Below, piece after piece: positions 6,282-45,500 of a DNA stretch of 55,838 bases (the stretch's first letter is position 1; the number at the start of each line of letters is the position of its first letter). A program made the translations under genes and the position numbers. Source of the stretch: a virus (lineage: Duplodnaviria; Caudoviricetes); IMG/VR virus record IMGVR_UViG_3300046808_000835, positions 1 through 55,838 of that record, one strand, 5' to 3'. Below the pieces are notes generated by a model. That model searched no databases. It was not told the DNA's origin and saw nothing but the letters and a program-made list of their open reading frames with translations.

Positions 6282-6282
6282 A

Positions 6283-10369: not shown

Positions 10370-10429
10370 CTCCGTGCATTTAATTAATGCTGAATTCGTC
10401 TCAGCTACGTTTAAGGCTTTGCCATAAAT

Positions 10430-10504: not shown

Positions 10505-10506
10505 AT

Positions 10507-10657: not shown

Positions 10658-10776
10658 CTATACTTTAGGAATCAATGGATTGCTAAAGTATAGCCCCTGT
10701 TCTTTGCAGGGTCGGGAATCGCAGCCCTCAGTGCTTTCAACACACCTATGCCACCCGTTTGAACTATACTGGTTTT

Positions 10777-10962
10777 TTAGTAAACCAACTCACTGTATGA
10801 CGGAAACCGGAGACTATGGCCAGTAGTCGTGGCTAGCTGTTTCTCATCAAACAGTGGACAGTGATACTCGATCAGGTATCTACCGTCAAAACGATCAAGC
10901 ACCTCGCAAGGTACCCAATACGCATTTCGCCATCCAGGAATGCTATAATATACTGTTGGCAT
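10777..10962 (-). CDS. Hypothetical protein
   Basis: MPTVYYSIPGW...; GGAG RBS; the longer ORF-track start overlaps a tRNA. Confidence 0.6.
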   Translation of the reverse strand: MPTVYYSIPGWRNAYWVPCEVLDRFDGRYLIEYHCPLFDEKQLATTTGHSLRFPSYSELVY

Positions 10963-10980
10963 ATTAAACTCCAAAAATTG

Positions 10981-11064
10981 TGGTGCGCAAGGAGAGACTC
11001 GAACTCTCACGCCTTGCGGCACTGGCTTCTAAGACCAGCGTGGCTACCATTACACCACTCGCGC
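10981..11064 (-). tRNA. tRNA-Leu(TAG)
   Basis: Type II cloverleaf, loop CTTAGAA, CCA. Confidence 0.95.
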
Positions 11065-23562: not shown

Positions 23563-24321
23563 ATGACTAAAAAATACTCGATTGACTCATTACCACATCA
23601 AGAACTTGTAAAGCTTTCCGACTCACAATTAACTGAGTGGTGTGATACTAATAATGTACACGCCCAACACACCTGGCTGTTGCCACAAATCGTGGCAAGG
23701 ATGTCAAACTGGACACCACAACGAACTGAGGGTCGACTAGACCCATTTGAAACACTTAGACTGGGTTGCGTAACCACACTAGACCAACTGTGCTGGAGGC
23801 TAGCTAGACTGCCCAGAAGTGCGTTAATTAAGGGTCAGGTAGCCAATCCACAGTATTCACAACTGGTACCACTTATACTACTAGCATTCAAGCAACAGTT
23901 TGGGATCATGTATAGTAGTTGGCAAAACTCGCAGCGACTAGATTTAGTGTTAGAACCCAAACTGTATGAAATGGTGAACCTTAGTCTAGAGCAAAGGGAA
24001 GTTGTTAACGGTTTAGGGTCAGAACAACTACTAGAGCTTCGTGATCATGGTTTGTGGAACTCACGAACACAAAAGCTGAAAAGTGCTACTAGTACCTGGG
24101 CACTTAGTCGTGTTGCAGGTACTCCACTAGCCGGCTTACCTAAACTTACACAAACCATTTTAACCCAAATTTGGCTAGCACATCCCACAAAGCGTAACTC
24201 AAACATGATCCTAGATCCACTCAACTGGGATCGTATTCCACCTCCACTAGTTTCACCGGAACCTCTGCTCGAAACCACCACAACCACTACCACCGACACT
24301 TACAAACTGCCATGGCTGTAA
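23563..24321 (+). CDS. T5 D2-like protein
   Basis: PR......Q...P.YS.LVPLIL.AFK.....YS.W and C-terminal LTQIWLA recall T5 D2; followed by a D3-like gene as in T5. Confidence 0.65.
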   Translation: MTKKYSIDSLPHQELVKLSDSQLTEWCDTNNVHAQHTWLLPQIVARMSNWTPQRTEGRLDPFETLRLGCVTTLDQLCWRLARLPRSALIKGQVANPQYSQLVPLILLAFKQQFGIMYSSWQNSQRLDLVLEPKLYEMVNLSLEQREVVNGLGSEQLLELRDHGLWNSRTQKLKSATSTWALSRVAGTPLAGLPKLTQTILTQIWLAHPTKRNSNMILDPLNWDRIPPPLVSPEPLLETTTTTTTDTYKLPWL

Positions 24322-24620
24322 AATATACCAAAGAAATCGTTGAAGAAATTGTTCGTGACTATGAAGCAGGCCGTCCAGTTGCAGAGATTGCACAACAGCT
24401 GGATGTACCTGAACGTAGTGTAATTGCTAAGTTGAGTTCGCTTGGAGTGTACAAGCGCAAGCAATATGTTAACAAAAATGGTGAAGCTCCTGTTAAAAAG
24501 GAGGTTTACATTGGTCGTATCGCTACACTGCTAGATGCCAACATTGAACTCTTAGACTCACTGGAAAAGGTAAACAAGCGAGTGCTTGTTATGCTTATGG
24601 AGGCACTGGAGTCGAAGTAG
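24312..24620 (+). CDS. T5 D3/A2-family DNA-binding protein
   Basis: YT.E....IV.DY.AG..V.EIA......RSVIAKLS..GVY. Confidence 0.7.
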   Translation: MAVKYTKEIVEEIVRDYEAGRPVAEIAQQLDVPERSVIAKLSSLGVYKRKQYVNKNGEAPVKKEVYIGRIATLLDANIELLDSLEKVNKRVLVMLMEALESK

Positions 24621-24678
24621 ATGCGGCTTTTTGCAGCTTACCACAATCAGAATTTTACCCCTATAAATTCGCTCAAGG

Positions 24679-24713
24679 TGCCACAGGTTTAACAACCTGT
24701 GGCATTTTTTTTT
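24679..24713 (+). terminator. Intrinsic terminator ending the early plus-strand unit
   Basis: TGCCACAGGTT-TAAC-AACCTGTGGCA then T9. Confidence 0.9.
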
Positions 24714-24908
24714 GACCCTAAACTGCAACAAATCACAGTTTTGGGTGCCATGTGTCAAATTTTCCACAATTAAACACAATTATTGCAGTTTAGGGTCAAA
24801 CAAACGAAATTAAGTACTTGACACTGACCCTAAACTGTGGTAGTCTGGGTTGGGTGACCAGTGTGTAGAATTTTCGTGGAGTTTTTGCACTGGCGCCGGT
24901 TTAGGGTC
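24711..24908. repeat. GACCCTAAAC motif x4, including an 18-bp perfect inverted pair
   Basis: TTTGACCCTAAACTGCAA 24711-24728 / TTGCAGTTTAGGGTCAAA 24783-24800; further copies at 24825 and 24899. Confidence 0.85.
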
Positions 24909-25003
24909 GAACGCAAGAATTTGCACTGGCGCAAAACACATGCACACACTAGTTTTTGCACTGGCGCAACATTAACGGATTCGTCAAGATTTTGCACTGG
25001 CGC
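24884..25003 (+). repeat. Four direct repeats TTTGCACTGGCGC, period 36/35/36
   Basis: Starts 24884, 24920, 24955, 24991; unique 22-23-nt spacers. Confidence 0.9.
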
Positions 25004-25020
25004 AGCAGGCCAACCAGGTT

Positions 25021-25292
25021 AGTTAGTGCTTACTAACTGCACCAAGTTGGTGCACAGTGCACCAAAACAGTGCATGATTTGTGAGTGGCCGCTAACTTGT
25101 GGTCTATGTGGCGTTTTTGCAACGTCGCAAAAGTTTTACAAAAATTCCCTTGACACCACGGAATTTTATGTGATAAAATTGGCGCGTCAAGTGTTGCATT
25201 TTTGCAACATGTAAAAAGTGAGCGCTCACTTTCAAAAAGTTTTAAAAAAATGCCTGCATTGTTAATGCAGGCATTTAAAAGGGCTTTCGCCC
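25021..25292. promoter_or_regulatory. Cluster of operator-like palindromes
   Basis: AGTTAGTGCTTACTAACT, TGCACCAAGTTGGTGCA, TGCACCAAAACAGTGCA, TTTTGCAACGTCGCAAAA, TGTTGCATTTTTGCAACA, AAAGTGAGCGCTCACTTT, AAATGCCTGCATT-GTT-AATGCAGGCATTT. Confidence 0.7.
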
Positions 25293-25298
25293 CGTTAA

Positions 25299-25628
25299 TT
25301 AAACCGGCTTTGAATTAGCCAGTGCGGTGAAAATCGCTTTAAGAGCCGATTTATTGGCTTTAGTAAGCGAATCAGTATCCGATTCACTCAATTGCAGAAT
25401 CGCGCCAATTGCATCAGCGTGAGCGTCTTTTTTAACAGGCTTTTCGCCAGTTTTAGAAACATACTCTTTTTTCTTATAAACTCCCTCACGCGAGAGTTTA
25501 GCCACAATCGACCGAACCGATTTTCCCATGCGATCAGCGATAGATTCCACGGATTCACCGACCAGATAACCAGCGACGATATCTTGAGTTTGTTCCGGAG
25601 TGTAGTTCACAGTTTTAGTTGCAGCCAT
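25299..25628 (-). CDS. T5 A2-like DNA-binding protein, copy 1
   Basis: MAATKTVNYTPEQT...GKSVRSIVAKLSREGVYKKK...SLTKANKSAL; own promoter TTGGCC-17-TATAAT. Confidence 0.7.
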   Translation of the reverse strand: MAATKTVNYTPEQTQDIVAGYLVGESVESIADRMGKSVRSIVAKLSREGVYKKKEYVSKTGEKPVKKDAHADAIGAILQLSESDTDSLTKANKSALKAIFTALANSKPV

Positions 25629-25886
25629 TTTCAAGCATCCTTTTTGGATTGTATCAGAAAACCCTTTCGGGCGGTTCAGGCTTTGCTTTGTGCTCTGCCC
25701 ATGAAAAGAATTATACAGGAAAACCAACCGGCGGCCAACAACAAAATTTTATATGTATATAGCAAATGGTTATATGCACAAAAACAACAGATACAAAAAA
25801 TTTACAATGTTCTGCTTGACACGGGCAAAATTATAATGATATAATTTTGGCGCGGTTTTTGCTGCACTGCAACATAGAATCCGAAT

Positions 25887-25914
25887 AAAAAAGCCGGATT
25901 ATCTCCGGCTTTTT
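25887..25914. terminator. Bidirectional terminator
   Basis: AAAAAAGCCGGA-TTATC-TCCGGCTTTTT. Confidence 0.8.
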
Positions 25915-25915
25915 G

Positions 25916-26263
25916 TTAATCAATATCCAATTCTGAATAATAAACGTTCGTTAACGCAAAACGCTTTTCCATCTTTTTAGCCAATCGCATAAAGTGTTTA
26001 CCGTGAATTTCAGTTAAACCCTTTTCTGCCTGATAAGCGTGAATCAATTCATGGGCCAAAAGTGTATTAAATTCTCGGTCAAAATCTGAATTACTGCAAA
26101 CATAAAAACGGATTATGTGACGTTTAACTTTGCCATTATCACGCATTTTAGGCCAGTATTCAGCATCATATTCAGACAATTTGCAGAATCTGAATTGTAT
26201 ATCAACCGGCTTTTTAAGTTTTAAAAAACTCACAAAATCGTTTAACAGATTAACGTCAATCAT
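25916..26263 (-). CDS. SprT-like zinc metallopeptidase
   Basis: TLLAHELIHAYQ...HGKHF. Confidence 0.75.
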   Translation of the reverse strand: MIDVNLLNDFVSFLKLKKPVDIQFRFCKLSEYDAEYWPKMRDNGKVKRHIIRFYVCSNSDFDREFNTLLAHELIHAYQAEKGLTEIHGKHFMRLAKKMEKRFALTNVYYSELDID

Positions 26264-26508
26264 TTTTTACCCCAAATTTTAAAGTATAGCATAACATTTA
26301 CAACCCCAAAATTAGCCACATAATTAAAAACTAAGGGCCAATCGTTTCGGTCAATAGTATATATCAACATGAAAACTTCTGCAAAAAACCAGCAAAGCAA
26401 AAATGCCCAGGATAATCCTGCGCTAGATTTATCCTGATAACATTTAACAGCCTGCGGTATTCCACATATTGCAAACAATGTGCTACCGATCCATGCGATT
26501 GCTTCCAT
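26260..26508 (-). CDS. PQ-loop/SemiSWEET-like 3-TM protein
   Basis: IG..LF....IPQA.K....KSS.GLS...L...Y......P...NY. Confidence 0.8.
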   Translation of the reverse strand: MEAIAWIGSTLFAICGIPQAVKCYQDKSSAGLSWAFLLCWFFAEVFMLIYTIDRNDWPLVFNYVANFGVVNVMLYFKIWGKK

Positions 26509-26623
26509 TTTTAAATTACCCTTTCGATTGTGGCAGTTAAAAGAAAACGGTCATTATAATATACCGTTTCAAACCGCTTTGCACTTATTAAGTGCAAAGC
26601 GATAATCAGGCAAATATAGAATC

Positions 26624-27316
26624 TCATTTAGCCGTGAAATTATCTTTTACCTGAAACTTGCGCCAATCATAACGCACCACATTATCCTGCCATTTACGAC
26701 GATTAACAATCTTTTGCAGGATAGGCAATTCAAAATCTCGCGCATCTTCTAATGCGGTATGCGGTTCAGTTTTAAATGAACCAGTAATAAAACCAGCGAC
26801 ACATTCGGCATTGGTTTTAAACGTCATGTTACCGTGTTCTGTCACACGATTAAATGCGTGATTATCAACGCAGAATTGACGATATTTTTTGGAATTGCAG
26901 ATATTACCGACTGCGGCTTGCCACAAACAAAACTTACTATTAAACCCGGAAAGGTCAATACCAGTATTGGCACACTTGTCCGAATCAAACGCTAGATTGT
27001 ATGCGGTAAGCATAGGATTATATTTTGCAACGGCTTGAATAAGCCAGCGATTAATAGCAGACACTGATGCCATAATACGATGGCCGGAATCCAGCATTTC
27101 ATTATAACCCTGCCGCTTTTGCTCGGCATATTCACGCGACCATTCTGCGCGAGAATTGGGAATATAAAAAAGGGATTTAGAATCGAAATGATCTTTTACC
27201 AGTACGGCACACTGATTGAAAATTTCACCGTGACGATCAACGATAACGCAGGCAAAATCAGCCACAGTATCATCAATGGTAGTTTCGGTGTCAATAATCG
27301 CAAAATACTTTTTCAT
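26624..27316 (-). CDS. DEDDh 3'-5' exonuclease
   Basis: IIDTETT, AYNLAFD, HTALEDA; start MKKYF downstream of TTGCAC-17-TATACT. Confidence 0.85.
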   Translation of the reverse strand: MKKYFAIIDTETTIDDTVADFACVIVDRHGEIFNQCAVLVKDHFDSKSLFYIPNSRAEWSREYAEQKRQGYNEMLDSGHRIMASVSAINRWLIQAVAKYNPMLTAYNLAFDSDKCANTGIDLSGFNSKFCLWQAAVGNICNSKKYRQFCVDNHAFNRVTEHGNMTFKTNAECVAGFITGSFKTEPHTALEDARDFELPILQKIVNRRKWQDNVVRYDWRKFQVKDNFTAK

Positions 27317-27617
27317 GGAAAACCTTATACCGGAAAACGCCGGATAGTCGCGTGTGGCAGTGCCGCCACAGAAAAGAGTATACACCCAATCCCAAGACTG
27401 TGCAAGCCAGGCATCATTGAATTTTTCTATCGCGCCCATAGAAAATTTCAATCGGCCAGGGTCTTGACAAACTCAAAATTTTATGGTAAAATTTTGGCGC
27501 CGTGGGTGTTGTAAAAAAACAACACCACAAAAAATTTACAATTTTTTCTTGACACGGCCGAATTTTATATGATAAAATTGGCGCCTCAATTGCCTAAAAA
27601 ATAGGCAATTGAGTTTT

Positions 27618-27788
27618 TTAAATTGTCACAGTATCCTCAACCGTAAAAATTTCAATAGTACTATATCCCAAATCGTATTTTAGCAATTTGCGGTAATCTT
27701 CAAAGATTCTGTCATAATCACAATTTTCTGTGAGAATATCCAATTTGCCGGAATCGTCATCATAAAAACCCACAATGCAATAATTCAT
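27618..27788 (-). CDS. Small acidic hypothetical protein
   Basis: MNYCIVGFYDDD...; starts just after the dmp-like stop. Confidence 0.55.
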   Translation of the reverse strand: MNYCIVGFYDDDSGKLDILTENCDYDRIFEDYRKLLKYDLGYSTIEIFTVEDTVTI

Positions 27789-27789
27789 T

Positions 27790-28263
27790 TCAGTGTCCTT
27801 GAAAACTTGGGCAAAATACTGGTTTGATTTGCGGAAAACGATCACAAACTGCCATCAGATAATCACGATTATCCTCATAAAAAGCCCATTCCGCTTTTTG
27901 GAATTGTGGCAAGTTAAAAAACCGGGCCAATCCGTTTGATTTAAGGGTTTTACCGGATTGTGAATCATTAGGCTTGCGAGAGATAATATAATCAGGCCGA
28001 CCCAAAACCGTATCAATAAAACGTGCATCTGGACGATTAATAACTCGCGCAGTGGCAATAATCACATAAGTATTAGGGCAAAGTAAATCGCGCTTATATT
28101 GATCGGCCAATGGCAAGAGTTTATCCTGCATTGCGCGATACTCATTAGCACGCCAGTATTCTAGATCAATACGTTCCGTGCCGTCCAGATTTTTGATTGT
28201 GCGATACCTGTGCAAACTGTCCACAATAGTACCGTCCATGTCGTACACTTGAACCCGTTTCAT
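27790..28263 (-). CDS. dmp: HAD-family deoxynucleoside 5'-monophosphatase (T5 Dmp-like)
   Basis: RVQVYDMDGTIVDSLHR...IDL..WR...MQDKLLPL...IATAR...FYEDN recalls the T5 Dmp N-terminus. Confidence 0.7.
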   Translation of the reverse strand: MKRVQVYDMDGTIVDSLHRYRTIKNLDGTERIDLEYWRANEYRAMQDKLLPLADQYKRDLLCPNTYVIIATARVINRPDARFIDTVLGRPDYIISRKPNDSQSGKTLKSNGLARFFNLPQFQKAEWAFYEDNRDYLMAVCDRFPQIKPVFCPSFQGH

Positions 28264-28461
28264 CGTTTGTTTTCCGTTGTTTGTTTCCATGAGAGAATTA
28301 TACACGAGCCACACAATCCTGCAAGCAACAAAAAATTATTAGCACATGAAAAAAAGTTGCTTGAGATGCCTTGACACCAGCAAATTATATATGATATAAT
28401 TTTGGCGCCGCAAGTGTGGTAAAAATACCACACTTGACCAGCAGGTTACAGTCTGCTAGGG

Positions 28462-28776
28462 TTAGGCTTGCAACGCCTTGAGAATTGCAGCCAATGCAGA
28501 TTTATTGGCTTTTGTCAAACTTTCGGCATCACTTTCCGACAGTTGCAGGATTGCAGCGATCGCATCAGCCTGAACATCCTTGCTTACCGGACGCTCGCCA
28601 TTTTTGCTAACGTACTCTTTCTTTTTGTACACGCCTTCGCGTGACAGTTTAGCCACAATCGAACGAACCGATTTGCCCATTTCCTGAGCAATAGATTCGA
28701 CAGATTCACCGGCCTGATAATCAGCCACGATTTTCAGGGTTTGCTCTTGCGTGTAGTTTACGGTCTTTTCAGCCAT
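28462..28776 (-). CDS. T5 A2-like DNA-binding protein, copy 2
   Basis: Highly similar to copy 1 (identical MGKSVRSIVAKLSREGVYKKKEYVSK); own promoter TTGCGC-17-TATAAT. Confidence 0.7.
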   Translation of the reverse strand: MAEKTVNYTQEQTLKIVADYQAGESVESIAQEMGKSVRSIVAKLSREGVYKKKEYVSKNGERPVSKDVQADAIAAILQLSESDAESLTKANKSALAAILKALQA

Positions 28777-28993
28777 TTGAAGCACCTTTTAGGTTATAAC
28801 ACAAATTCGATCAGCCCCGCGCCAACCGATAAAAACAATTATACAGAACAGAACCCAGTCGCGCAAGTGTGAAATGTAAAAGGTTTGTGTTGCTTACTTC
28901 CACAAAAAATTTACAATTGACGGCTTGACACCAGCAAATTATATATAGTATAATTTGGCGCCACAAATGCCTAAAAGTTAGGCATTTGTAACT

Positions 28994-29209
28994 TTAAAAA
29001 TTCCAGTTTATGATCGCAATTGAATTTGCTACCAAAAAACTAGCCTGTAAAAATGCTAGGTTATATTGACGGAATCTAACGGCAGTTAAAAAAAGAATTA
29101 TGCTGCTAACAAAAAACAGTGGAATTGCGCCGGTTGGCAGTTTGAATGCCAGCAAAAAACTGCCCACAATTCCAAAACTTACGCCAAAAATTTCCAAGAG
29201 TTTGTTCAT
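28994..29209 (-). CDS. Small multi-TM membrane protein
   Basis: Three hydrophobic segments. Confidence 0.65.
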   Translation of the reverse strand: MNKLLEIFGVSFGIVGSFLLAFKLPTGAIPLFFVSSIILFLTAVRFRQYNLAFLQASFLVANSIAIINWNF

Positions 29210-29598
29210 TATACTTTATCCATTCTGTGATAGCGTTTCGGAGCCAGTCCATAGTTTAGCATGATTTTTTGCCAATTTTTACCGTGTCCGCATTTCTTTT
29301 CACTTTCACCGTACAGGTTAAAATCTACTTGATGGGCCAATTCATGCGGCACAATTTCATGCGACATAATTGTGAGATATTCCGGGCTATGCAGCCAAAA
29401 ATTAATGCCAAATTCAATACGATTGCTTTGTTGAAAACACAATCCTGCGGTAACTTTTAGTCTGCCGTTTAGTTTAATTTCCGGCATTTCAAAATGAGAT
29501 AGTTCAGGATACAGCAATACAAATTTTTGCCAGTGACGCTGGCAAATTGTCCTGACCGTGTTGGTCAGTTCTGTGCGCTGTGATTTTGTGAGAGCCAT
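29209..29598 (-). CDS. SprT-family metallopeptidase
   Basis: RLKVTAG...IVPHELAH...HGKNWQKIM...G..P.RYH. Confidence 0.85.
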   Translation of the reverse strand: MALTKSQRTELTNTVRTICQRHWQKFVLLYPELSHFEMPEIKLNGRLKVTAGLCFQQSNRIEFGINFWLHSPEYLTIMSHEIVPHELAHQVDFNLYGESEKKCGHGKNWQKIMLNYGLAPKRYHRMDKV

Positions 29599-29746
29599 GA
29601 AAAGATTATAGCACAGTGCGACAGGCCAACAAGCAACAAAATTTCATTAGCATATAGCAAAAAGTTGCTTGCAGCCTGTTGACACCAGCAAATTTTATGT
29701 GATAAAATTGGCGCCCGGATTGCCTAAAAATTAGGCAACCTTACTT

Positions 29747-30043
29747 TTAAATGGTAATCTTTTGCGCTGGAAATTGGATTGAACCGTCATATTCTAATTG
29801 GTCGCGCTCATAACTGGTAAGATAATCGTCCTCATGCAAACTCCAATCAATAATCCATTCACGGAAATATTCATTGTCGCATTCAATTTGCGGTTTAGCA
29901 CGCAAAATCAGGTTATGCAATGAAACATAATCGACACGCTGAACATTTTCAATCACATAATCGTTCCCGCCTTTAGCCTTCCAGTAAGGCTTATCGGCAT
30001 CGCCATAGTTTTCCATTACTTGAGTTTCGATCACGATTTTCAT
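29747..30043 (-). CDS. Hypothetical protein
   Basis: KIVIETQ..ENYG.....YWK.KGG..Y. Confidence 0.75.
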   Translation of the reverse strand: MKIVIETQVMENYGDADKPYWKAKGGNDYVIENVQRVDYVSLHNLILRAKPQIECDNEYFREWIIDWSLHEDDYLTSYERDQLEYDGSIQFPAQKITI

Positions 30044-30054
30044 ATAAAACCCTT

Positions 30055-30285
30055 TTAGATATACTCTGACCCGCCGCCATAATCTTCATCAGTACCCCAG
30101 CCTGCGGATGCTAGTGCATCTGAATCATCATTATAGTCCGGTTCTGAATCACTGTCAAGCGGAGCGATTCCGCTTTCGATTGCTTCCATAACCCAAGACT
30201 CGGGAATGTCGAGCCATTTAGCAATCTCGGCCACAGTCATGCCATCTTCAATGCCATCACAGATATTCATTTCAAGATCAGTCAT
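30055..30285 (-). CDS. HTH-like N-terminus with acidic tail
   Basis: DGMTVAEIAKWLDIPESWV...DALASAGWGTDEDYG. Confidence 0.7.
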   Translation of the reverse strand: MTDLEMNICDGIEDGMTVAEIAKWLDIPESWVMEAIESGIAPLDSDSEPDYNDDSDALASAGWGTDEDYGGGSEYI

Positions 30286-30286
30286 T

Positions 30287-30409
30287 TTACTTCCTCACAA
30301 TTTCACGAACAAGGTACACGGAAATGTTATATTTTGCAACCAGTTGCATGATGGTCATGCCCAGTGCATAGTCACGCTCGATCAGGGGAACCGCTTGTTC
30401 TAGACTCAT
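30287..30409 (-). CDS. 40-aa HTH-like peptide
   Basis: MSLEQAVPLIERDYALGMTIMQLVAKYNISVYLVREIVRK; GGAG RBS; TTGTAC-17-TATACT promoter. Confidence 0.6.
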   Translation of the reverse strand: MSLEQAVPLIERDYALGMTIMQLVAKYNISVYLVREIVRK

Positions 30410-30579
30410 TTCATTTGCTCCGTTCAACATGGAAACAGTATAGCATACCGAGCACAGTGTACAAACGACTTTTTGTTATTAGCATATAGCAAAAAATTGC
30501 TTGCAGCCTGTTGACACGCACAAAAATCATATGATATAATTTGGCGCGTCAAGTGTGGTATTTTTACCACACTTGAATT

Positions 30580-30669
30580 TCATTTAATGAACCTGAACAG
30601 AATCCAACATTTTACCACGAAAATTGCAGCCACTACACCGGTGGCCACAATAATTTCACAATTAGTCAT
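30580..30669 (-). CDS. 29-aa single-TM peptide
   Basis: MTNCEIIVATGVVAAIFVVKCWILFRFIK; GAGG RBS. Confidence 0.45.
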   Translation of the reverse strand: MTNCEIIVATGVVAAIFVVKCWILFRFIK

Positions 30670-30952
30670 AGTATACCTCAGAGTTACGATCCAGCCATTC
30701 TACATATTCTTCCTGAATTGAGTCATACTCTTGCTCATGGAAACGCTCTTCCATTTGTCGCAGAACATCATCAGGAAAACCTTCTTCAGCATAACGCTCA
30801 TCCAGCCATTCTGGCTGGGTTTCCGTCCAAGAATCAAACATAAACTCAAGATGGCTCAGCCATTTTTTGCTAGATTCGTCAGAGTAGCAAGGCTCTTCAT
30901 AATCATAGCGTGAATCATAGTAATAACTTTCAGGGGTTTCGACGATCTTCAT
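30662..30952 (-). CDS. Highly acidic protein
   Basis: About 29/96 D+E; promoter TTGACA-17-TATAAT. Confidence 0.75.
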   Translation of the reverse strand: MKIVETPESYYYDSRYDYEEPCYSDESSKKWLSHLEFMFDSWTETQPEWLDERYAEEGFPDDVLRQMEERFHEQEYDSIQEEYVEWLDRNSEVYYD

Positions 30953-31031
30953 GTTTGCTTCCTTGTTTCAATGTGTCTATTATACAGGAACCAGTTGCTG
31001 TGTCAACAGGTTCCTGTGTCAACATTGTAAA

Positions 31032-31184
31032 TTAATAGCGTGATTCTGCAAGTTCACGCAGTTCACGGTTAGCATCTTCCCTGTCCTGCTCAAAGCATTC
31101 TTCCAGAATCTTTTGGGTATCGTCAAAGAACCCATCATCATAGAAGTCCTCGCAGGTCACAGCACAATCAAAATCGTCAAACAT
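31032..31184 (-). CDS. Highly acidic 50-aa protein
   Basis: MFDDFDCAVTCEDFYDDGFFDDTQKILEECFEQDREDANRELRELAESRY; AGGAGG RBS; own promoter; not in ORF track. Confidence 0.7.
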   Translation of the reverse strand: MFDDFDCAVTCEDFYDDGFFDDTQKILEECFEQDREDANRELRELAESRY

Positions 31185-31255
31185 CACAACCTCCTGTTAA
31201 TGTATAAACATTATATCATGCAATCCTGGGCCATGCAAGCCCAGGATTTTTATTG

Positions 31256-31579
31256 TTACGCTGCGATCCACTCCTGCTCATCACGGAACAGCAAACCTTC
31301 TGAACCATCATATTCATCCATCACAAACTGCCTACCTTCACGCACCCACAGCACGCCCAGATCATCCATGTTGCCATCCCAACGATAGGTGTCCCACAGG
31401 TAGTCCGTCAGGGCATCCGTACCCAAACCGTTTTCCATGTTTTCCAGTGATGCAGCAACCACCGGGTCAAACATGGCTTGCATACGATACTCACGGTCAA
31501 GCCCTGTCGAGAAGCCACGACCGTAGTCGTTGGTCAGTACCACAGCCACAAAACCGTCACGCTTCAATTTGGCAACCAT
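31256..31579 (-). CDS. Hypothetical phage protein
   Basis: VAVV....YG.GFST...MFDP...F..DEYDGSE; AGGAG RBS; TTGCAC-17-TATACT promoter. Confidence 0.8.
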   Translation of the reverse strand: MVAKLKRDGFVAVVLTNDYGRGFSTGLDREYRMQAMFDPVVAASLENMENGLGTDALTDYLWDTYRWDGNMDDLGVLWVREGRQFVMDEYDGSEGLLFRDEQEWIAA

Positions 31580-31641
31580 CACAATCTCCTGTTAACGTGT
31601 GAACAGTATAGCACAGCCATAGATTTGTGCAAGCATTTTTC

Positions 31642-31688
31642 GATTGTATTTTTCTATTGCGTTTTCGGGTTGATAGAAAAATACAATC
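31642..31688. repeat. 16-bp perfect inverted repeat at the pre-early/late boundary
   Basis: GATTGTATTTTTCTAT / ATAGAAAAATACAATC. Confidence 0.8.
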
Positions 31689-31819
31689 ACGAAAATACTT
31701 GACAACAGGGGGGTTATGGGACATAATGAATGATTGTGTGCTGATCACCCACACACACGTAAATCATGAAAAACAAAACCAAAACCCTCACGGTGCCATC
31801 ACCCTAATAAAAAACACAC

Positions 31820-31848
31820 TTGCCATACATGCATAACCATGTTATACT
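31820..31848 (+). promoter_or_regulatory. Promoter for terminase genes
   Basis: TTGCCA-17-TATACT. Confidence 0.7.
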
Positions 31849-31872
31849 GTAAAAAATTTCTCGAGGAATACA

Positions 31873-32367
31873 ATGCTGCCCCAAACCAATCCCGCCGAGG
31901 CACTGCAAATACAGCCAGAACAATTGGAAATAGCCAATTGTTATTTACAATGTGGAAGTGTGGCCGAAACTGCCGACAATCTACAACTGTCACCCGAAAC
32001 CGTAGCAAACACACTCCAGCTGCCACATGTCAGAGCGTACACAGCTCAGCTATTCATGGAAACTGGCTTTGCAAATCGTCACACTATCCGTCGCGCCATG
32101 GACGCTGTCATACGCCAAAAACTGCAAGAACTGCATGAGTCAGAAACTGGATCCAACAAAGACATTGCCGACCTACTGTTACTATCACATAAAATGTCTA
32201 TGGATATTTTAGATCGCGAACTGCAACTGGCCAAACTGCAGCAGCAGGTAACTGAGAGTCAGGTCAAAACACAAACCAACATACAAATTAACGGTGGTTT
32301 AACAGACAACACACAGTATGCTAAACTAATTCAACAGTTACTGGAACGAGATGCTGGAGATAAGTAA
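31873..32367 (+). CDS. terS: Terminase small subunit (T5-like)
   Basis: PE.LEIAN.YL..G...F..TG..NR...I..KL.E..E...GS.KDI.DLL; directly upstream of TerL. Confidence 0.8.
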   Translation: MLPQTNPAEALQIQPEQLEIANCYLQCGSVAETADNLQLSPETVANTLQLPHVRAYTAQLFMETGFANRHTIRRAMDAVIRQKLQELHESETGSNKDIADLLLLSHKMSMDILDRELQLAKLQQQVTESQVKTQTNIQINGGLTDNTQYAKLIQQLLERDAGDK

Positions 32368-35338: not shown

Positions 35339-37285
35339 ATGGTAGACCGCAATCAAATGCTGTATTTAAACAGCACAGTTACCAAAGCCGAGCCCTCTAA
35401 TCCTGATGATGACAGTTTAGTTATTAGTGGTTACGCAAGTACCGTAGATGCAGACCGTCATGGTGATGTGGTAAGTAGTGCTGCTTGGCAGCGTGGTTTG
35501 AATAACTACTTGAAAAATCCTATTATTCTAGCATTTCATAATCATTCAATGCCTATCGGTCGTATGGTAGAGCATAGAATTGATGAGCGTGGTTTGTGGA
35601 TTAAAGCTCGTATTTCTAAAGCCGCTTCCGCAGTTTATGAATTGGTAAAAGACGGCATTTTAAGCGCATTCAGTATCGGATTCAGAGTTGTTGATGCTGA
35701 GTATAATCAATTAACAGAACTATTTGTTGTAAAAGAACTGGAACTGCATGAAATTAGCGTTGTAAGCGTCCCAGCAAATCAAGAAACACTATTTAGTTTA
35801 GCAAAAGCGTTTGACACTCACTCCGAGTACAAACAGTTTAAGTTGCAATTTGCACCCGAAAGCGAATCAGCTAAAGGGCTAGAATCCTCAGTGGAAGCAA
35901 ATAGCATATCAATTAGTAAGGAATGGAATATGACTCCAGAAGAAATGAAACAAGCAATGGTTGATGCTGCTCGCCAAGCCGCCGAGGAAGCTGCTAAGGC
36001 AGTTGTAGCCGAGCAACAGAAAGCCGCCCAAGCCCTGGCTGCCCAACAGCAAGCCGAGCGTGACTTAGAAGCCAAGATCAAAGCTGCCGTTAGCGCAACT
36101 GTTGAGACTGGTGTTAGCGGTGCAGAGAAGCTGCTTGCTGAAGTTGAGAAGCGTTTTGCTGAACAAGCTGAGCAAAGCAAGAGCGCAATCGCTGGTTTAG
36201 AAGCTGCTCTCAAAGAGAAAGCTGCTGAACTCGAAGCAATTCAGAAGAGCAAGATGCAGTTTAGCGACAAGAGCGGTGACACCGTTTCTTATTCCGACAA
36301 AGAGAAAGCTGTTCTGTTAGCTCGCATGAGCAAGAAAAGCATTCTTGAGACCAAAGTTGGTCGTGAGCTTGTACAAAAGTACGGTGCACACGTTCCTTCA
36401 GCCACTTGGGAACTCGAAGTTTCTACTAACCTAGAAAACGAAGTTCGTCAGCGTTTAGTTGTAGCACCTACAATGCGTGCTATCACAATGCAAACCAATG
36501 TAATGACAATTCCTGTTAATCCAGAGTCTGGTGTTGCAACCTGGGTTCAGAATGCTAACTTTGGTGCAGCTGCTAGTGCTGGTAACAATGCTACACACGC
36601 ACTTAAAGAAATCACTCTTAATGCATACAAAGTTGCTACCAATGAGTACGTAGCCTTCGAAGAAGAAGAAGACGCTCTGTTAGCAATTATGCCTGTTATC
36701 CGTGATGGCATGATCCGTCGTGTTGCTCGCGCTGTAGATCGCGCTTTCTTACGCGGTGCCGGTGCTGGTGCTGATCCTGTTAAAGGTATCGGTACATACG
36801 ACGCAGCCAGTGCTGTAAACCTCGATATCGACGGTGCTACACTTGCTGCTGGCAGCTATGCCAAAACCACAGTTGCTACCCTGCGCGATATGCGTAAAGA
36901 TCTAGGCGTATGGGGTCTTGATCCTAGCGAGCTAGTTTACATTGTTTCTACCGATGTATATTACGAGTTGCTCGAAGACACCAACTTCTTAACAGTTGAC
37001 AAAGTTGGTGATCGTGCCACAATCTTAACCGGTCAAATCGGCTCTGTTGCTAATACACCAGTATTAGTAAGCGGCGAGTTTGATGCTAAGGGTGCTGGTG
37101 CCATGGCTGCTGTTTGCTTTGCACCTGCTAACTTCTTGGTTGGCAATCAGCGCGGTCTCCGTGTTGACACCGATGACTTGATCGAGACACAGCGTCGCGT
37201 AATGGTTGCAAGCCTGCGCACTGGTCTTACACAAGTTACCACAAACTACGGTCAGGGCGTAAGCACCTTACGTTACGTAGCTTAA
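35339..37285 (+). CDS. Fused HK97 prohead protease / major capsid protein
   Basis: ISGYAS...DRHGD...ILAFHNH..PIG...FSIGF...EISVVSVPANQ, then coiled-coil delta domain and HK97 fold; in-frame ATG at 35930 with AAGGA RBS. Confidence 0.92.
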   Translation: MVDRNQMLYLNSTVTKAEPSNPDDDSLVISGYASTVDADRHGDVVSSAAWQRGLNNYLKNPIILAFHNHSMPIGRMVEHRIDERGLWIKARISKAASAVYELVKDGILSAFSIGFRVVDAEYNQLTELFVVKELELHEISVVSVPANQETLFSLAKAFDTHSEYKQFKLQFAPESESAKGLESSVEANSISISKEWNMTPEEMKQAMVDAARQAAEEAAKAVVAEQQKAAQALAAQQQAERDLEAKIKAAVSATVETGVSGAEKLLAEVEKRFAEQAEQSKSAIAGLEAALKEKAAELEAIQKSKMQFSDKSGDTVSYSDKEKAVLLARMSKKSILETKVGRELVQKYGAHVPSATWELEVSTNLENEVRQRLVVAPTMRAITMQTNVMTIPVNPESGVATWVQNANFGAAASAGNNATHALKEITLNAYKVATNEYVAFEEEEDALLAIMPVIRDGMIRRVARAVDRAFLRGAGAGADPVKGIGTYDAASAVNLDIDGATLAAGSYAKTTVATLRDMRKDLGVWGLDPSELVYIVSTDVYYELLEDTNFLTVDKVGDRATILTGQIGSVANTPVLVSGEFDAKGAGAMAAVCFAPANFLVGNQRGLRVDTDDLIETQRRVMVASLRTGLTQVTTNYGQGVSTLRYVA

Positions 37286-42505: not shown

Positions 42506-42557
42506 AGGCCATAAGTAAAATCTTGCATACAACGGTAAAAGCCAGTTGGGAGATAGT

Positions 42558-45500
42558 ATGTCTCAAAAAATCGGAATCGAAGTAGTTGTTAATAGTAATA
42601 TTAAGAACGAAACTCAAGACGCTAACAAGTTTAATGAAGCATTAAAACGTGCAGCTCAGACTGCAAAAACTATTGGGGTAGGTGCAGCTGCTGGTGGTAC
42701 TAGTGGCAGTCAGCGAGCTGCACAAATGTCACAGCCTGTAATGGCTACTCAAGTAACTGAATATGGTCGTGCTCGCGGCAGTGCTGGCGCAACCGGTGCT
42801 AGTGCTCGTGATTTTGCAAACCAGTCCCAAGGTCTGGGTGGATTAGTACGTCTATATGCAACATATGCTGCTAACGTATTTGCTGTTGGGGCTGCTTTCC
42901 GTGCACTTTCAAGTGCTATGGACACAGCCAATATGGTTCGCGGATTAGATCAAATTGGTGCTGCAAGTGGTGTAGCCCTAGGCGGATTGTCTCGTCAATT
43001 AGTTGCAGCTACTGGTGGTGCTATCAGCCTACGTGAGGCTATGAGCGCAACTGTTAAAGTAACAGCCGCTGGTTTAGGAAGTGAAAACGTACTAAGATTG
43101 GGTACAGTTGCCGCAAAAGCATCACAAGCACTAGGTGTTGATCTTGGTGATGCTGTTAACCGTTTAAGTCGTGGTATTACTAAATTAGAGCCTGAATTAT
43201 TAGATGAATTAGGCATCTTTACTAAGATTGAGCCTGCTGTTCAAAAATATGCACTAGCTCTTGGCAAAAATGCTAGCTCATTAACTGATTTTGAACGTCG
43301 TCAAGCATTTGCTAATGCTGTATTAGAAGAAGGTGAAAAGAAGTTTGCTGCTATTAAGGTTGATGCAAACCCTTATAACAAACTTGCTGCCTCATTACAA
43401 AATATAGCACAAAGTGGATTAGAGTTAATAAATAAAGTACTAGCACCAATTGTTAACTTTTTAAGTGAAAGCCCCACTGCATTAATAGCTGCATTAGGGG
43501 GACTAGGTTTAGCACTAGTACGTCAAATTGCTCCTGCTTTTGGACAGTTTCGTGAAAATATTCGCAAATCAAATATTGAAGCCGCACAAGCCGGCAAAGC
43601 TAGAGTTCAAAGTGCTATTGCTCTTCAACAAGAATTAAATGCACAAGTATTAAGATACTCAGAGATAGGTGCCGATAAAGAAATTGCTAAATTAGAAGCA
43701 GCAGAAAAAAGATTAAATAGATTACAAGCTAAACTAAGTACAGAAACCGCTGCCTCTAAAATACTGGCGGAAAAACCTGATACGGCCGATATTACAAAAG
43801 CTGATATTAAAGCTATTAGAGCTGCTGCAGCCGCTGATGAAGCCGCCGGTAATATAGCTTTAGCTAAATCCCAAAGAGAAATCGCTACTGCTATTGTAAA
43901 AGTTCAGAATGCTGAAAAAGGTTTAAGTGAGGAACAAAGACAAAAAGCTGCAAATTTACAAAAAGAATTAACTAATAGTAGAACTATAATAGGCATAAAT
44001 GCTCAACTAGCCAGTAGTATTCAAAAAGCTAGTTACAAGGATCAAATAGTTTCAAATGCTGCTTATGCCGGTAGTTTAATTGGACCAACCCGCGCCATAA
44101 GGCTAATGTTAGCTGAACTAAAGGCTGGTGAAGTTCAGTTAAATGCTTTTTCAAGGGCCACAGTTGTTGCTCGCGGAACTTTAGCAGCTTTTGCTGGAGC
44201 AGCTGCTACAATTGGGGCTGCAATAAATACGGCCTTAGGAGTCATTGGTTTAATAGCCGGAGCTCTAAGTTTACTATCAACAGCTTTTAGTGCAACTACG
44301 CGGGAATCTAAAGCTACTGGAGAAGCACTAGACGTATTAGAACAGAGTACAAAAAATCTTAATAATACAATAGATGTTATTAATTCAAAACCATTTTTAG
44401 AGCAGTTTAGTACTCAAAGTGTAACTGCACGTTCCAATGCATTAGATAGTTTAAGTACTAGTATACAAAAAGTAATAGATACTAGTCAGGCCGAGTTATC
44501 TAGAATGAATTGGATTGATAGTTTAAAAGATAATATTTCAAAAATATGGGGCGGAGACGTACTAAGTAAATCTGCTGAAGAAATCTCTCGTGGCTTAGCT
44601 GCCGCATTTAGTGATGCCACTACTGCAAACAGTACAGCAGGTAAGGCTGCGCGCGAAAGTTTAGAAAGATTATTAGGTACAGGCGTTGATTTAACTGACT
44701 TTGAAAAAATTGATGCTGCACTTGCTAAATTAAGTAAAGCAGACCGTATAACAGCAATAAAATCTATTGGTTTTGAAATCAATAATTTATCAAAAGCTGC
44801 AAAAGCACCAGCAGTAGCCTTGCAGGGTTTAGATGAATCGCTTAAGAAAATAAGTGAAAGTCGTCAAAAATTTATTAGTGGCTTATTACCTACAGATCCA
44901 CTTAGTGAATTTGGCCGAGGATTAATTGCTACTAGCTTTCAATTTGAAGAAGCACTAAAAAATCCAACAGTTCAACTTGAAACAATTAAAAAGCTGTTTG
45001 AACAAATTAAATCATTACCGGTTAGCCCTGATTTACTGTTAGGTCTACAAGATGCGGATGCAATAGCAAAAAATCTTCAAGAATTACAGGGCGAATTAGG
45101 CAGTACACAAGCAAAAATAACGCAATTAACTAAAGCTAGGAACGAAGAGCTTAGTAAAAGCGGTAAAGGCTTTCAAACTGTTAAAACTGGAGATATTGAA
45201 AAAATTGAAGAGTATGCAAATAAAGTACAAAATTCTAGTTCCAAAGTTAAAGAGTTAAATACCGAATTAGGTAGGCTAAAAGGCCTGGGAGCAAGCCTAG
45301 AAATAGAAATACAAACCGAAACAGAAAGTTTAAGTAAGTTTAAAGATACAATTAATGCTGCTGTTGTTAAAACTTTTGAAGTTGGTGCAGAAGTAGTTTC
45401 AGCACGTCTTGGTGCAGAGTTTGTAAAGGCAAGCGCTACAGTAACTCAAACTTTTGGAAGCCTTTTAGGCAATACAAAAACTGGTATTGCTATGAGAGCA

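Follow-up and report, generated by a model that had tools for sequence, protein, structure and literature searches.

Backward-facing promoter cassettes at the ends of early gene units in an uncultured T5-like freshwater phage

Described systems closest to the cassettes

Collision-driven bidirectional terminators have been described between convergent genes in E. coli (Ju et al. 2019, as cited in Wang et al., bioRxiv 10.1101/2022.10.23.513370; Wang et al., bioRxiv 10.1101/2022.10.23.513370). Head-on polymerase collision is needed to stop read-through at these terminators. They do not look like intrinsic terminators, need no canonical U-tract, and need a nascent-RNA stem-loop to fix the collision site. 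Their termination efficiency scales with initiation at the opposing promoter. The PeSL (promoter-early stem-loop) cassettes of T4-type phages are composite terminator/promoter motifs that consist of a near-consensus sigma-70 promoter and a stem-loop (PMC2839356, PMC4122927). They lie between small variable early ORFs, are conserved across a phage group and are tied to indels. The promoter of a PeSL drives the next ORF and its stem-loop lies upstream of that promoter. The T5 injection-stop region contains DnaA-box-like repeats, and a G/A-GCGC word followed by a palindrome (NC_005859 annotation; Davison, bioRxiv 10.1101/866236). The T5 major-nick consensus is R/GCGCRGG (PMC3517423). Stringent, stable-RNA-type promoters have a G/C-rich discriminator between the -10 and the start site (PMC9303308). 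They typically have 16-nt spacers and imperfect hexamers, and they drive rRNA or tRNA. Lambda OOP RNA, a short non-coding cis-antisense RNA that acts against cII, comes from a promoter downstream of a gene that fires back over the 3' end of that gene, at a single locus with a defined terminator.

The window analysed in this work is the whole 55,838-nt stretch of the virus record IMGVR_UViG_3300046808_000835. The initial annotation had described an eight-copy module there, made up of an antisense promoter, GGCGC and a variable palindrome. That observation is confirmed in this work. Comparing the module to the E. coli terminators, both may place convergent transcription across a short element that can form a hairpin in either RNA. 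However, a dedicated consensus promoter without a gene would supply the opposing polymerases here, where a real convergent gene does so in E. coli. The hairpin sits in the first 30 nt of the putative antisense transcript, and the arrangement is repeated after every unit of a co-directional gene array. Comparing the module to PeSLs, both are repeated intergenic composites among small variable early ORFs. However, the consensus promoter here is antisense, the stem-loop lies downstream of it, a second and weaker sense promoter serves the next gene, and the phage family is different. The module shares a G/C-rich discriminator with stringent promoters, where short-lived open complexes and sensitivity to DNA relaxation and ppGpp would be expected, but it has an 18-nt spacer, consensus hexamers and an extended -10, and it drives nothing recognisable. 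Comparing it to OOP, there is an array of eight here, and many of the copies have a terminator before the gene or none at all. Full-text literature searches on T5 pre-early, injection-stop and antisense themes found no description of the module.

Anatomy of the eight modules

The pattern TTGACA N17-19 TAWAAT N1-5 GGCGC gives eight matches on the + strand between 25150 and 30576. It gives no match on the - strand and none for the backwards control. A stricter pattern gave 5 matches against 0.00 expected in 100 shuffles. The features of this stretch are as follows.

24882..25003 (+): four direct repeats TTTTGCACTGGCGC (period 35-36 nt), a DnaA-box-like word followed by G/GCGC, with TGGCGC at 24891, 24927, 24962 and 24998; the counterpart of the repeat and major-nick part of the T5 injection-stop region.
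25150..25274 (+): module 1, TTGACA-N18-TGaTAAAAT-T-GGCGC (25150-25185), palindrome 25192-25209, GTGAGCGCTCAC at 25218-25229 and hairpin 25250-25274; faces the stop of the HTH gene at 25299.
25816..25914 (+): module 2, TTGACA-N18-TGaTATAAT-TTT-GGCGC (25816-25853), a weak palindrome, then the bidirectional terminator GCCGGA..TCCGGC+T5 (25893-25914); faces the stop at 25916.
27464..27528 (+): module 3, first of a tandem pair, TTGACA-N17-TGgTAAAAT-TTT-GGCGC (27464-27500), palindrome 27502-27528.
27549..27613 (+): module 4, TTGACA-N18-TGaTAAAAT-T-GGCGC (27549-27584), 12-bp-arm palindrome 27585-27613 followed by T6; abuts the stop at 27618.
28371..28436 (+): module 5, TTGACA-N18-TGaTATAAT-TTT-GGCGC (28371-28408), palindrome CAAGTGTGGTA..TACCACACTTG 28411-28436; faces the stop of the HTH gene at 28462.
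28925..28989 (+): module 6, TTGACA-N18-TATAAT-TT-GGCGC (28925-28961; no TG), palindrome ACAAATGCCTA..TAGGCATTTGT 28963-28989; abuts the stop at 28994.
29679..29740 (+): module 7, TTGACA-N18-TGaTAAAAT-T-GGCGC (29679-29714), palindrome TTGCCTAA..TTAGGCAA 29720-29738; abuts the stop at 29747.
30511..30576 (+): module 8, TTGACA-N18-TGaTATAAT-TT-GGCGC (30511-30547), palindrome 30549-30576; abuts the stop of a 29-codon ORF (30580-30669, -).
25710..25738 (-): sense promoter of the unit 25299-25631, back to back with module 2 (TTGGCC-17-TATAAT).
27377..27405 (-): sense promoter of the unit 26624-27316 and following genes, back to back with module 3 (TTGCAC-17-TATACT by eye; listed by the consensus scan as TGCACA-16-TATACT).
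28462..28776 (-): HTH protein, 104 aa, the most conserved gene of the region in the clade, with paralogues at 25299-25631 (-) and 24312-24620 (+); by inference only, a candidate reader of the invariant part of the module.

The spacer is 18 nt in 7 of 8 modules and 17 nt in module 3. TG precedes the -10 in 7 of 8 modules, except module 6. TGGCGC is present in 8 of 8 modules, and the only other + strand copies between 24.8 and 30.6 kb are the four in the direct repeats. The inverted repeat around the -10 is seen in 7 of 8 modules and is imperfect at 30511. The palindromes start 1-7 nt after GGCGC and fall into two families. The first family, GTGTGGTA..TACCACAC / TGTTGCA..TGCAACA / GGTGTTG..CAACACC, is found at modules 1, 3, 5 and 8. 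The second family, TGCCTA-N5-TAGGCA, is found at modules 4, 6 and 7. Module 2 has only the weak palindrome. The AT-rich linker that the initial annotation described as TAGCAyATAGCAAAAA-like is present at 3 of 8 modules (5, 7 and 8). Its claim of a 17-nt spacer in the minus-strand sense promoters is only partly right, since the spacers read by eye are 16-17 nt and only three sense promoters are listed by the consensus scan.

The genes of 25.3-31.6 kb are on the - strand, with PHROG or Pfam hits for HTH, SprT-like and HAD-like proteins. All seven minus-strand transcription units between 30.6 and 25.1 kb end at a module. No + strand ORF with a ribosome-binding site follows the modules. The term pre-early that had been applied to these genes is not supported as stated and is an inference, as the window holds no A1, A2 or dmp homologue and no doubled depth marks a terminal repeat.

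Conservation in uncultured relatives of T5

The module marks a large uncultured clade of distant T5 relatives, and an IMG/VR scan identified it in at least 120 stretches. No module is found in the 12-kb left end of T5, and Vibrio phage X1 also lacks it. The window and 120 IMG/VR loci (121 sources, 1.13 Mb) contain 322 unique -10 + GGCGC sites, of which 255 have a perfect TTGACA and 34 have 5 of 6. Among the 255 sites, the spacer is 18 nt in 179 and 17 nt in 73, and TG precedes the -10 in 169. All copies are co-oriented in the window and in 29 of the 30 related loci with at least 3 copies (except the locus L101), and ORF cover lies on the opposite strand. In loci with at least 3 copies, 76 copies are antisense, 2 are sense and 60 are unclear. 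Tandem copies 77-124 nt apart occur in the window and in 11 related loci, which fits a dosage of polymerases.

Two promoter classes separate cleanly in 35 clade sources, including the window. Promoters with GGCGC are antisense in 75 cases, sense in 2 and unclear in 83. Promoters without GGCGC are sense in 82 cases, antisense in 20 and unclear in 98. In the intergenic subset, sense promoters have a 17-nt spacer in 30 of 38 and AT-rich discriminators, and antisense promoters have an 18-nt spacer in 37 of 41.

GGCGC plus 40 nt has a mean MFE of -12.4 kcal/mol against -7.4 for shuffles, with no strand preference (127 against 154, p = 0.14). Arms of 8 bp or more are found in 161 of 289 modules, and the palindrome centre lies 14-16 nt after GGCGC in 75 of those 161. 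Palindromes at the orthologous site upstream of the HAD-like gene differ between relatives by paired changes, for example between the window and the related locus L062. The stop of a converging ORF of at least 60 aa lies within 600 nt of 224 of 253 modules, where the median distance is 98.5 nt and only 2 are closer than 20 nt. In the whole clade set, 7 of 289 modules are followed by SD+start+12 codons, against a shuffled mean of 4.15 and maximum of 7. No Rfam family was found at gathering score.

One rival explanation is that the modules are PeSL-like shuffling cassettes, where the conserved 40-80 bp persist mainly because they give homology for exchange of small early gene cassettes between related phages and the promoter activity is incidental. 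Gene content between modules differs among relatives, as several window genes have 0-2 homologues in 120 loci while others have 40-76. Contigs from DNA runs break at modules, but the joints seen in related DNA runs have short sides (22-29 letters) and are not reliable. The strict antisense orientation (76 against 2) and the separate promoter class point to selection on function and not just on homology, and we consider this explanation improbable.

A second rival explanation, which we consider about as improbable, is a supercoil coupler. The module would be the divergent partner of the next unit's sense promoter, and its 18-nt spacer and GC-rich discriminator would make it fire only on negatively supercoiled DNA. 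The pair would generate or buffer local torsion on linear, freshly entered DNA, and cruciform extrusion of the two inverted repeats would add to the buffer. A divergent promoter-like site lies within 180 nt upstream of 139 of 241 modules, against 35 of 241 for the reversed control, with a -35 to -35 distance of mostly 20-80 nt. Long spacers are favoured at high negative supercoiling, and G/C-rich discriminators go with repression by relaxation and ppGpp (PMC9303308). Both inverted repeats are also strand-symmetric. However, the distance between the paired promoters is not fixed (42-78 nt in the window by eye, and spread among the 241 modules), module 1 has no sense partner, and back-to-back placement follows anyway from the end of one unit meeting the start of the next. 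The role of topology is inferred from sequence alone.

Possible roles of the modules

The interpretation in the initial annotation is partly supported. A real, repeated, selected cis-element with a consensus promoter faces the 3' end of the preceding gene, has no gene of its own, and is conserved in position, spacing and orientation in dozens of related contigs. Four roles had been proposed for it. Operator-gated antisense or collision shut-off is the closest to our preferred explanation. Short hairpin RNAs fit only the roughly 42% of modules that have a terminator-like site within 160 nt. Nick sites have one real point in their favour, which is given below. Polymerase brakes for DNA entry would be a purely inferred role.

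The nick explanation proposes that G/GCGC followed by a palindrome is the recognition unit of a T5-like nicking or injection-stop system, spread along the first-entering DNA instead of being concentrated in one injection-stop region. Nicks would lie in the template strand of the early genes, giving run-off ends, and in the non-template strand of the module promoter. GGCGC contains the core R/GCGC of the T5 nick consensus, whose minus-strand sites in T5 at 9742, 22330, 39740, 78567 and 121273 match the known nick map. The T5 injection-stop region has GGATTTGCACA repeats, the last followed by AAA/GCGCAGGG. The T5 nick at 9748 follows a TTTGCACA repeat and is followed at once by a palindrome, and the window has four TTTGCACTG/GCGC repeats beside module 1 (DnaA box consensus TTWTNCACA; Davison, bioRxiv 10.1101/866236). 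Both regions lie between the early genes and the small-gene region next to the terminase genes. By that homology, the + strand of the window corresponds to the nicked strand of T5. All 12 GGCGC copies of 24.9-30.6 kb are on it, and GGCGC is kept even in the four repeats that have no -10. However, 0 of 8 modules have RGG after GCGC and none meets the full consensus. The two T5 major nicks outside the terminal repeats that were examined, at 22330 and 39740, show no promoter-like context. T5 has R/GCGCRGG on both strands (5 and 6 copies), so the word alone does not define a nick. T5 and Vibrio phage X1 have no module, no nickase was identified, and a nick signal leaves the full consensus promoter unexplained. 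This explanation is unlikely, though slightly less so than the previous two.

An operator-gated cis-antisense RNA system is the strongest of the rivals, although we also regard it as unlikely. The promoters would make stable 5'-hairpin RNAs that pair with the 3' ends of the early mRNAs. Phage-encoded proteins or conserved host regulators bound to the palindromes at about +15 to +20 would switch them, giving timed shut-off of each unit. Lambda OOP RNA against cII is a precedent. The palindrome centre is fixed relative to the promoter and not to the stop codon (20-600 nt away), which equally suits an operator. Palindrome families recur within a phage and between distant phages. The family AATGMGA..TCKCATT keeps its sequence across very distant phages, and it occurs without a consensus promoter in the sequence read in the T5 injection-stop region and also in the unannotated gap of Vibrio phage X1, which argues for a bound protein and not mere structure. 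About 58% of modules have no module-strand terminator within 160 nt, so their RNA would enter the gene. The highly conserved HTH protein is encoded in the same region in 76 of 120 loci, and it is 70-81% identical in the best hits, against about 53% for TerS. However, it is too uniform to read the variable palindromes. The outer arms of the palindromes vary yet stay complementary, which a dimeric repressor does not require, and 42% of modules are cut off by a terminator-like site before or at the gene end. Both the RNA and its protein switch are inferred from sequence alone.

The explanation that we prefer, tentatively and at less than even confidence, is that the modules are orphan convergent promoters with a symmetric hairpin that end or insulate each unit by head-on polymerase collision, for which the E. 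coli bidirectional terminators are a precedent. The sequence anatomy, its non-random nature, its conservation and its strict antisense placement are established by this analysis, whereas initiation by polymerase at the modules, and the importance of collision over the RNA product or a bound protein, are inferred. The one RNA-library run holds only unstranded contigs over 28301-28816 and 25903-26053, one of which spans module 5 whole, and this fits sense read-through or DNA carry-over as well as anything else. A gene-sense terminator-like hairpin lies near 79 of 246 modules, and 104 of 246 have one on the module strand within 160 nt, against 28 of 246 for the reversed control. In those cases a collision device looks redundant and the antisense transcript would be very short. 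The model does not explain the invariant GGCGC. It also does not explain the inverted repeat around the -10, which is present in 132 of 289 modules against 1 of 289 shuffled and covaries perfectly (TATAAT with ATTATA 66:0; TAAAAT with ATTTTA 31:0). Elongating polymerases also usually dislodge a promoter-bound polymerase rather than stop at it.

In this view, each module would be a genuine sigma-70-type promoter of a separate kinetic class, with a consensus -35, an extended and consensus -10, an 18-nt spacer and a GGCGC discriminator. It would be placed tail-on at the end of an early transcription unit and would fire back towards that unit, with no gene to express. Its first 25-35 transcribed bases would be a symmetric palindrome that folds equally well in either RNA. 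The polymerases it loads, held near the promoter by the hairpin, would meet polymerases arriving from the gene head-on. That would end, and insulate, the unit and, where no terminator intervenes, would damp it by antisense transcription into its 3' end. In effect, the module would be a self-contained, promoter-powered bidirectional terminator or insulator.

The array in the window and its gene context

The window is an IMG/VR virus record of 55,838 bases that is estimated to be 53% complete. The main blocks of the window are as follows.

1-11 kb (- strand): tRNA genes and a tmRNA gene.
Up to about 24.6 kb: nucleotide-metabolism and other genes.
25.3-31.6 kb (- strand): a block of small genes.
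From 31.87 kb onward (+ strand): terminase small and large subunits, portal, protease/capsid, and tail genes.

The large terminase is about 48% identical to those of Vibrio T5-like phages (Demerecviridae). No closer cultured relative was identified in the phage collection. Megablast of 25150-30576 and blastn of 28330-28440 against 50,697 phage records returned no match. Individual features within these blocks were identified as follows.

2331-2710 (- strand): a phage-borne permuted tmRNA gene that matches Rfam beta_tmRNA (90.8 bits, gathering 84) and tmRNA_permuted (116 bits), with the tag ANDEVYALAA given by ARAGORN.
1083-11064 (- strand): nine tRNA genes identified by ARAGORN, interspersed with small ORFs.
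6182-6281 (- strand): a tenth, weak tRNA hit by Rfam (35.2 bits), also among the small ORFs.
24312-24620 (+ strand), 25299-25631 (- strand), and 28462-28776 (- strand): three paralogues of a 102-110 aa predicted two-domain HTH protein (PHROG 323 'D5-like', weak).
25916-26263 (- strand) and 29209-29598 (- strand): two small SprT-like (zinc-metalloprotease-fold) proteins, a duplication that is unusual.
29598-29640 (- strand): promoter of the SprT-like gene, the TATAAT of which, read by eye, lies 6 nt before the ATG so that the mRNA would be leaderless or nearly so.
35339-37285 (+ strand): a 648-aa ORF that matches both head-maturation protease (residues 16-299) and major head protein (21-618) families and looks like a fused protease-capsid gene.
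42546-49667 (+ strand) and 51145-55836 (+ strand): very long ORFs of 2373 aa and more than 1564 aa in the tail region, the first being about twice the length of the tape-measure gene annotated in Vibrio phage X1.

The tmRNA hints at a betaproteobacterial host, and the DNA data sets that contain the phage are freshwater metagenomes.

The array of promoter modules described in the initial annotation is real. The pattern TTGACA-N17-19-TAWAAT-N1-5-GGCGC occurs eight times between 25150 and 30547, and all eight copies are on the + strand. The pattern gave no reverse hits and no hits for the backwards control. A stricter form of the pattern gave 5 hits against 0.00 in 100 shuffles. All eight modules fit a sigma-70-type promoter in sequence (-35 TTGACA, spacer of 17 +/- 1, -10 TATAAT, and an optional TGn extension) and score 11-12 of 12. 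Seven of the eight spacers are 18 nt, and seven of the eight modules have the TGn extension. Each GGCGC is followed within 1-7 nt by a palindrome of one of two families, except for module 2 (modules are numbered along the + strand), where a weak palindrome is followed by a bidirectional terminator.

The - strand genes have family support that consists of two SprT-like, one HAD-like, and two 80%-identical HTH proteins. Reading the units from 30.6 kb down to 25.1 kb, all seven units end at a module, and one of these ends has a tandem pair (modules 3 and 4). Each following unit has its own weaker promoter that lies back to back with the module. Three of these promoters were listed by the consensus scan, while the rest were read by eye, with spacers of 16-17 nt. 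No + strand ORF with a ribosome-binding site follows the modules, and no hidden small genes were identified beyond chance. No known RNA family was identified by Rfam at gathering score in 24300-31900. Three sub-threshold rows around module 2 (best E 0.089) are taken as chance.

The single RNA-library run (X16) gave 8 unstranded contig pieces that show neither strand nor ends. The contig depths of the DNA runs labelled X1 and X3 are uneven, with no clear doubling over 24.4-31.8 kb that would mark a terminal repeat.

The module and its promoter class across related loci

The pattern was used to scan IMG/VR, and at least 120 stretches that contain it were identified. Many of them hold 3-7 co-oriented copies. 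Among 120 loci, 76 encode the HTH protein of the window, 54 encode its HAD-like protein, and 57 encode its TerS, so most hits are relatives. Since the relatives were identified using the motif itself, these counts describe the clade that has it and not its frequency among T5-like phages. The module is not present in the left 12 kb of T5 or in the 29 kb around the terminase of Vibrio phage X1.

The copies share one strand in 29 of the 30 related loci with at least 3 copies and in the window, with ORF cover on the other strand. The exception is the related locus L101, where two modules (6614-6698) face each other with their GGCGC blocks about 15 nt apart, so two polymerases could not occupy both at once. 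The sub-clade of L101 also has ATTACAAATTTGTAAT palindromes upstream of the -35. Module by module, 76 are antisense, 2 are sense, and 60 are unclear because the neighbouring ORFs are short, in loci with at least 3 copies. The strand was called from simple ORF cover and not from a gene finder.

We also anchored the search only on a -10-like hexamer plus GGCGC so that the -35 was not imposed beyond the one match that brought each locus in. This search gave 322 unique sites. Of these, 255 have a perfect TTGACA and 34 have 5 of 6 positions, which gives 289 of 322 with at least 5 of 6. Among the 255 sites, the spacer is 18 nt in 179, 17 nt in 73, and 16 nt in 1, and TG is present in 169.

Two promoter classes were identified among promoter-like sites that score at least 10 of 12 in the 35 sources with at least 3 modules, the window among them. 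The sites with GGCGC consist of 75 antisense, 2 sense, and 83 unclear sites. The sites without GGCGC consist of 82 sense, 20 antisense, and 98 unclear sites. In the intergenic subset, the sites with GGCGC are 41 antisense to 0 sense, and the sites without GGCGC are 10 antisense to 38 sense. Sense promoters have 17-nt spacers (30 of 38) and A/T-rich discriminators. The antisense class has 18-nt spacers (37 of 41) and the G/C block, with G/C-dominated position frequencies after the -10.

The G/C-rich discriminator is shared with stringent-type promoters. However, the 16-nt spacer subclass of those promoters does not agree with the spacers identified here. Promoter classes in T5 are reported to differ mainly in the discriminator (PMC7472727). 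Long spacers are reported to be favoured at high negative supercoiling, and G/C-rich discriminators are reported to go with repression by relaxation and ppGpp (PMC9303308). From these reports we infer that the module promoters bind polymerase strongly but open conditionally. A divergent promoter-like partner is present in 139 of 241 modules, against 35 of 241 in the control. Torsional coupling of the module with this divergent sense promoter is a possible but unlikely main role.

Two inverted repeats and the predicted antisense transcripts

The first inverted repeat lies around the -10. Since the loop position varies, the repeat could not be assessed in a fixed register and was searched module by module. 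Eight or more Watson-Crick pairs are present in 132 of 289 modules, against 1 of 289 when the spacer is shuffled and 2 of 165 for other consensus promoters of the same loci. The arms covary perfectly (TATAAT with ATTATA 66:0, and TAAAAT with ATTTTA 31:0; Fisher p = 5e-26), and the T-run before GGCGC is mirrored by an A-run. About half of the modules lack this repeat, so it is optional, and we have no explanation for it. A single-strand-DNA promoter or primer site was considered and set aside because the repeat would pair the -10 with its own spacer. A second module subtype that lacks the -10 inverted repeat is present in many related loci, for example L019 (11971-12007) and L020 (2429-2465). 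This subtype instead has a TAGGGG-N4-CCCCTA palindrome that abuts the -35, and TGTTGTATTTTTGCA words upstream.

The second inverted repeat lies downstream of GGCGC. GGCGC plus 40 nt folds at -12.4 kcal/mol on average, against -7.4 for shuffles, and neither strand is favoured (127 against 154, p = 0.14). Arms of 8 bp or more are present in 161 of 289 modules, and the centre lies 14-16 nt after GGCGC in 75 of those 161. At the orthologous site upstream of the HAD-like gene, relatives carry different palindromes, and the window and the related locus L062 differ by paired changes. One family, AATGMGA-N3-7-TCKCATT, keeps its sequence in 21 of 134 loci. These include the injection-stop region of T5 (L129, 9691-9709) and the unannotated gap of Vibrio phage vB_ValS_X1 (L130, 5596-6016), which suggests a binding site shared across Demerecviridae with different hosts. 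So both structure and, for some families, sequence appear to matter. A resemblance of one palindrome family to a metal-regulator box was set aside. Recombination hot-spot words in three modules of the window, which are not conserved in relatives, were also set aside.

The stop of a converging ORF of at least 60 aa lies within 600 nt in 224 of 253 modules. The median distance is 98.5 nt, and only 2 modules are closer than 20 nt. In the window, the palindrome just fills the gap at modules 4, 6, 7, and 8. A hairpin plus T-run on the module strand lies within 160 nt in 104 of 246 modules, against 28 of 246 for the reversed control, and is absent in 142 of 246. One on the gene strand lies there in 79 of 246 and is absent in 167 of 246. 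So roughly two-fifths of the modules would give RNAs of 25-110 nt, and the rest would run into the gene. Operator-gated antisense RNA is a rival reading of the module that we consider rather unlikely as the main explanation.

The three HTH paralogues include a 104-aa protein that is the most conserved gene of the region, with 70-81% identity in the best hits against about 53% for TerS, and it is far more conserved than its neighbours. Two of the paralogues are 80% identical, and relatives also carry 2 or more copies. No PDB sequence hit below E 0.03 was identified for this protein. The AlphaFold model (mean pLDDT 85.8) shows two three-helix bundles joined by a basic linker. Foldseek gave no row with E of 0.001 or lower, and the weak rows include the bipartite HTH domains of Tc3, Mos1, and IstA transposases, which is a lead only. 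The uniformity of the protein suits the invariant part of the module or the TTTTGCACTGGCGC repeats to the left of module 1 better than the variable palindromes, although a role as protein partner is inference only.

Comparison with known systems and the proposed mechanism

Four TTTTGCACTGGCGC repeats lie to the left of module 1, while the T5 injection-stop region has GGATTTGCACA repeats. The last T5 repeat is followed by the annotated major nick, AAA/GCGCAGGG, and a palindrome. The published nick consensus is R/GCGCRGG, and its minus-strand sites reproduce the nick map. This makes the + strand of the window the counterpart of the nicked strand of T5, and every GGCGC of the array is on it. However, R/GCGC is present in 8 of 8 modules while RGG follows in 0 of 8. 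The fourth repeat box at 24998 reads G/GCGCAGC, which is 6 of 7. The two T5 nicks outside the repeats that were examined show no promoter-like context, and the consensus word occurs on both T5 strands. The reading of the modules as T5-type nick or entry-stop signals is considered unlikely.

The first-step-transfer (pre-early) region of T5 lies in a long terminal repeat, carries A1, A2, and dmp, and ends at an injection-stop region with DnaA boxes. Injection-stop-like repeats are present in this incomplete record, while no A1, A2, or dmp family was identified among the ORFs of the window that were tested, and BLASTP gave no alignment of the HTH protein to T5 A2. The term 'pre-early' used in the initial annotation remains an analogy based on position. 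The interpretation of the array in the initial annotation as an undescribed cis-system of such genes is supported only in part. No description of the module was found in full-text searches on T5 pre-early, injection-stop, and antisense themes, within the literature that was searched.

PeSL cassettes of T4-type phages share with the module a near-consensus early promoter plus stem-loop that is repeated between small variable ORFs. The PeSL motif is described as a composite terminator/promoter. In PeSL cassettes, the promoter is in sense with the downstream ORF, and the stem-loop, which is the terminator of the preceding gene, lies upstream of it. The modules do not show this arrangement, as 76 are antisense against 2 sense and the palindrome lies downstream of GGCGC. 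Joints in related DNA runs lie near modules (25859, 27589, and 25101/25794), but their sides are only 23-29 letters (22-29 letters over the cassette joints examined), which is below the reliability limit of the method. PeSL-like shuffling cassettes are a doubtful main explanation.

The features to be explained together are consensus-strength promoters, strict antisense placement at unit ends, no product, a strand-symmetric hairpin in the first 30 nt, frequent tandem copies (the window plus 11 loci), and frequent absence of a canonical terminator. The best match in the literature that we examined is collision-driven bidirectional termination, where head-on collision is required to stop read-through, a nascent stem-loop fixes the place, and efficiency rises with initiation frequency. 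In sequence, the module agrees with such an element as it lies between predicted convergent units, folds in either strand, and is often without a canonical intrinsic terminator. We therefore read the module, tentatively, as a gene-less convergent promoter that supplies the opposing polymerases. In this view, it would be a promoter-powered terminator or insulator, with antisense damping where it reads into the gene. The sequence anatomy, the conservation, and the placement of the modules come from the analysis itself. Initiation by polymerase at the modules, the meeting of transcript ends at the hairpin and the dependence of termination on the opposing promoter, any strand break at G/GCGC, any sensitivity to ppGpp or relaxation, and any binding by the HTH protein are inferred. 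The rival readings are not exclusive of the collision reading.

A further reading that is compatible with the evidence, although unlikely, is that a whole clade of uncultured T5-like phages uses a purpose-built cis-device that has not been described before. This device would be a gene-less, consensus-strength promoter of a special class (18-nt spacer, GGCGC discriminator, and -10 buried in its own inverted repeat) with a symmetric hairpin or operator at +1 to +30, installed after every first-expressed gene unit. It would terminate, insulate, and time those units by programmed head-on polymerase collisions. Each copy might be gated by a different DNA-binding protein or by DNA torsion, and possibly also by T5-type nicks at G/GCGC in the template strand.

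If the modules act as proposed, they show that a phage can build a terminator or insulator out of a promoter. That would carry the recently described collision mode of termination from an incidental property of convergent genes to a dedicated, portable cassette, of use as an insulator part in synthetic biology. How pre-early and early genes of T5 are shut off, and what the repeats, palindromes, and GCGC nicks of the injection-stop region are for, is still unsettled. This clade spreads the same building blocks (GCGC, palindromes, and DnaA-like boxes) over every gene boundary, which gives many natural variants. The module also marks this large freshwater phage clade sharply, and it sorts the promoters of the clade into two classes from sequence alone.
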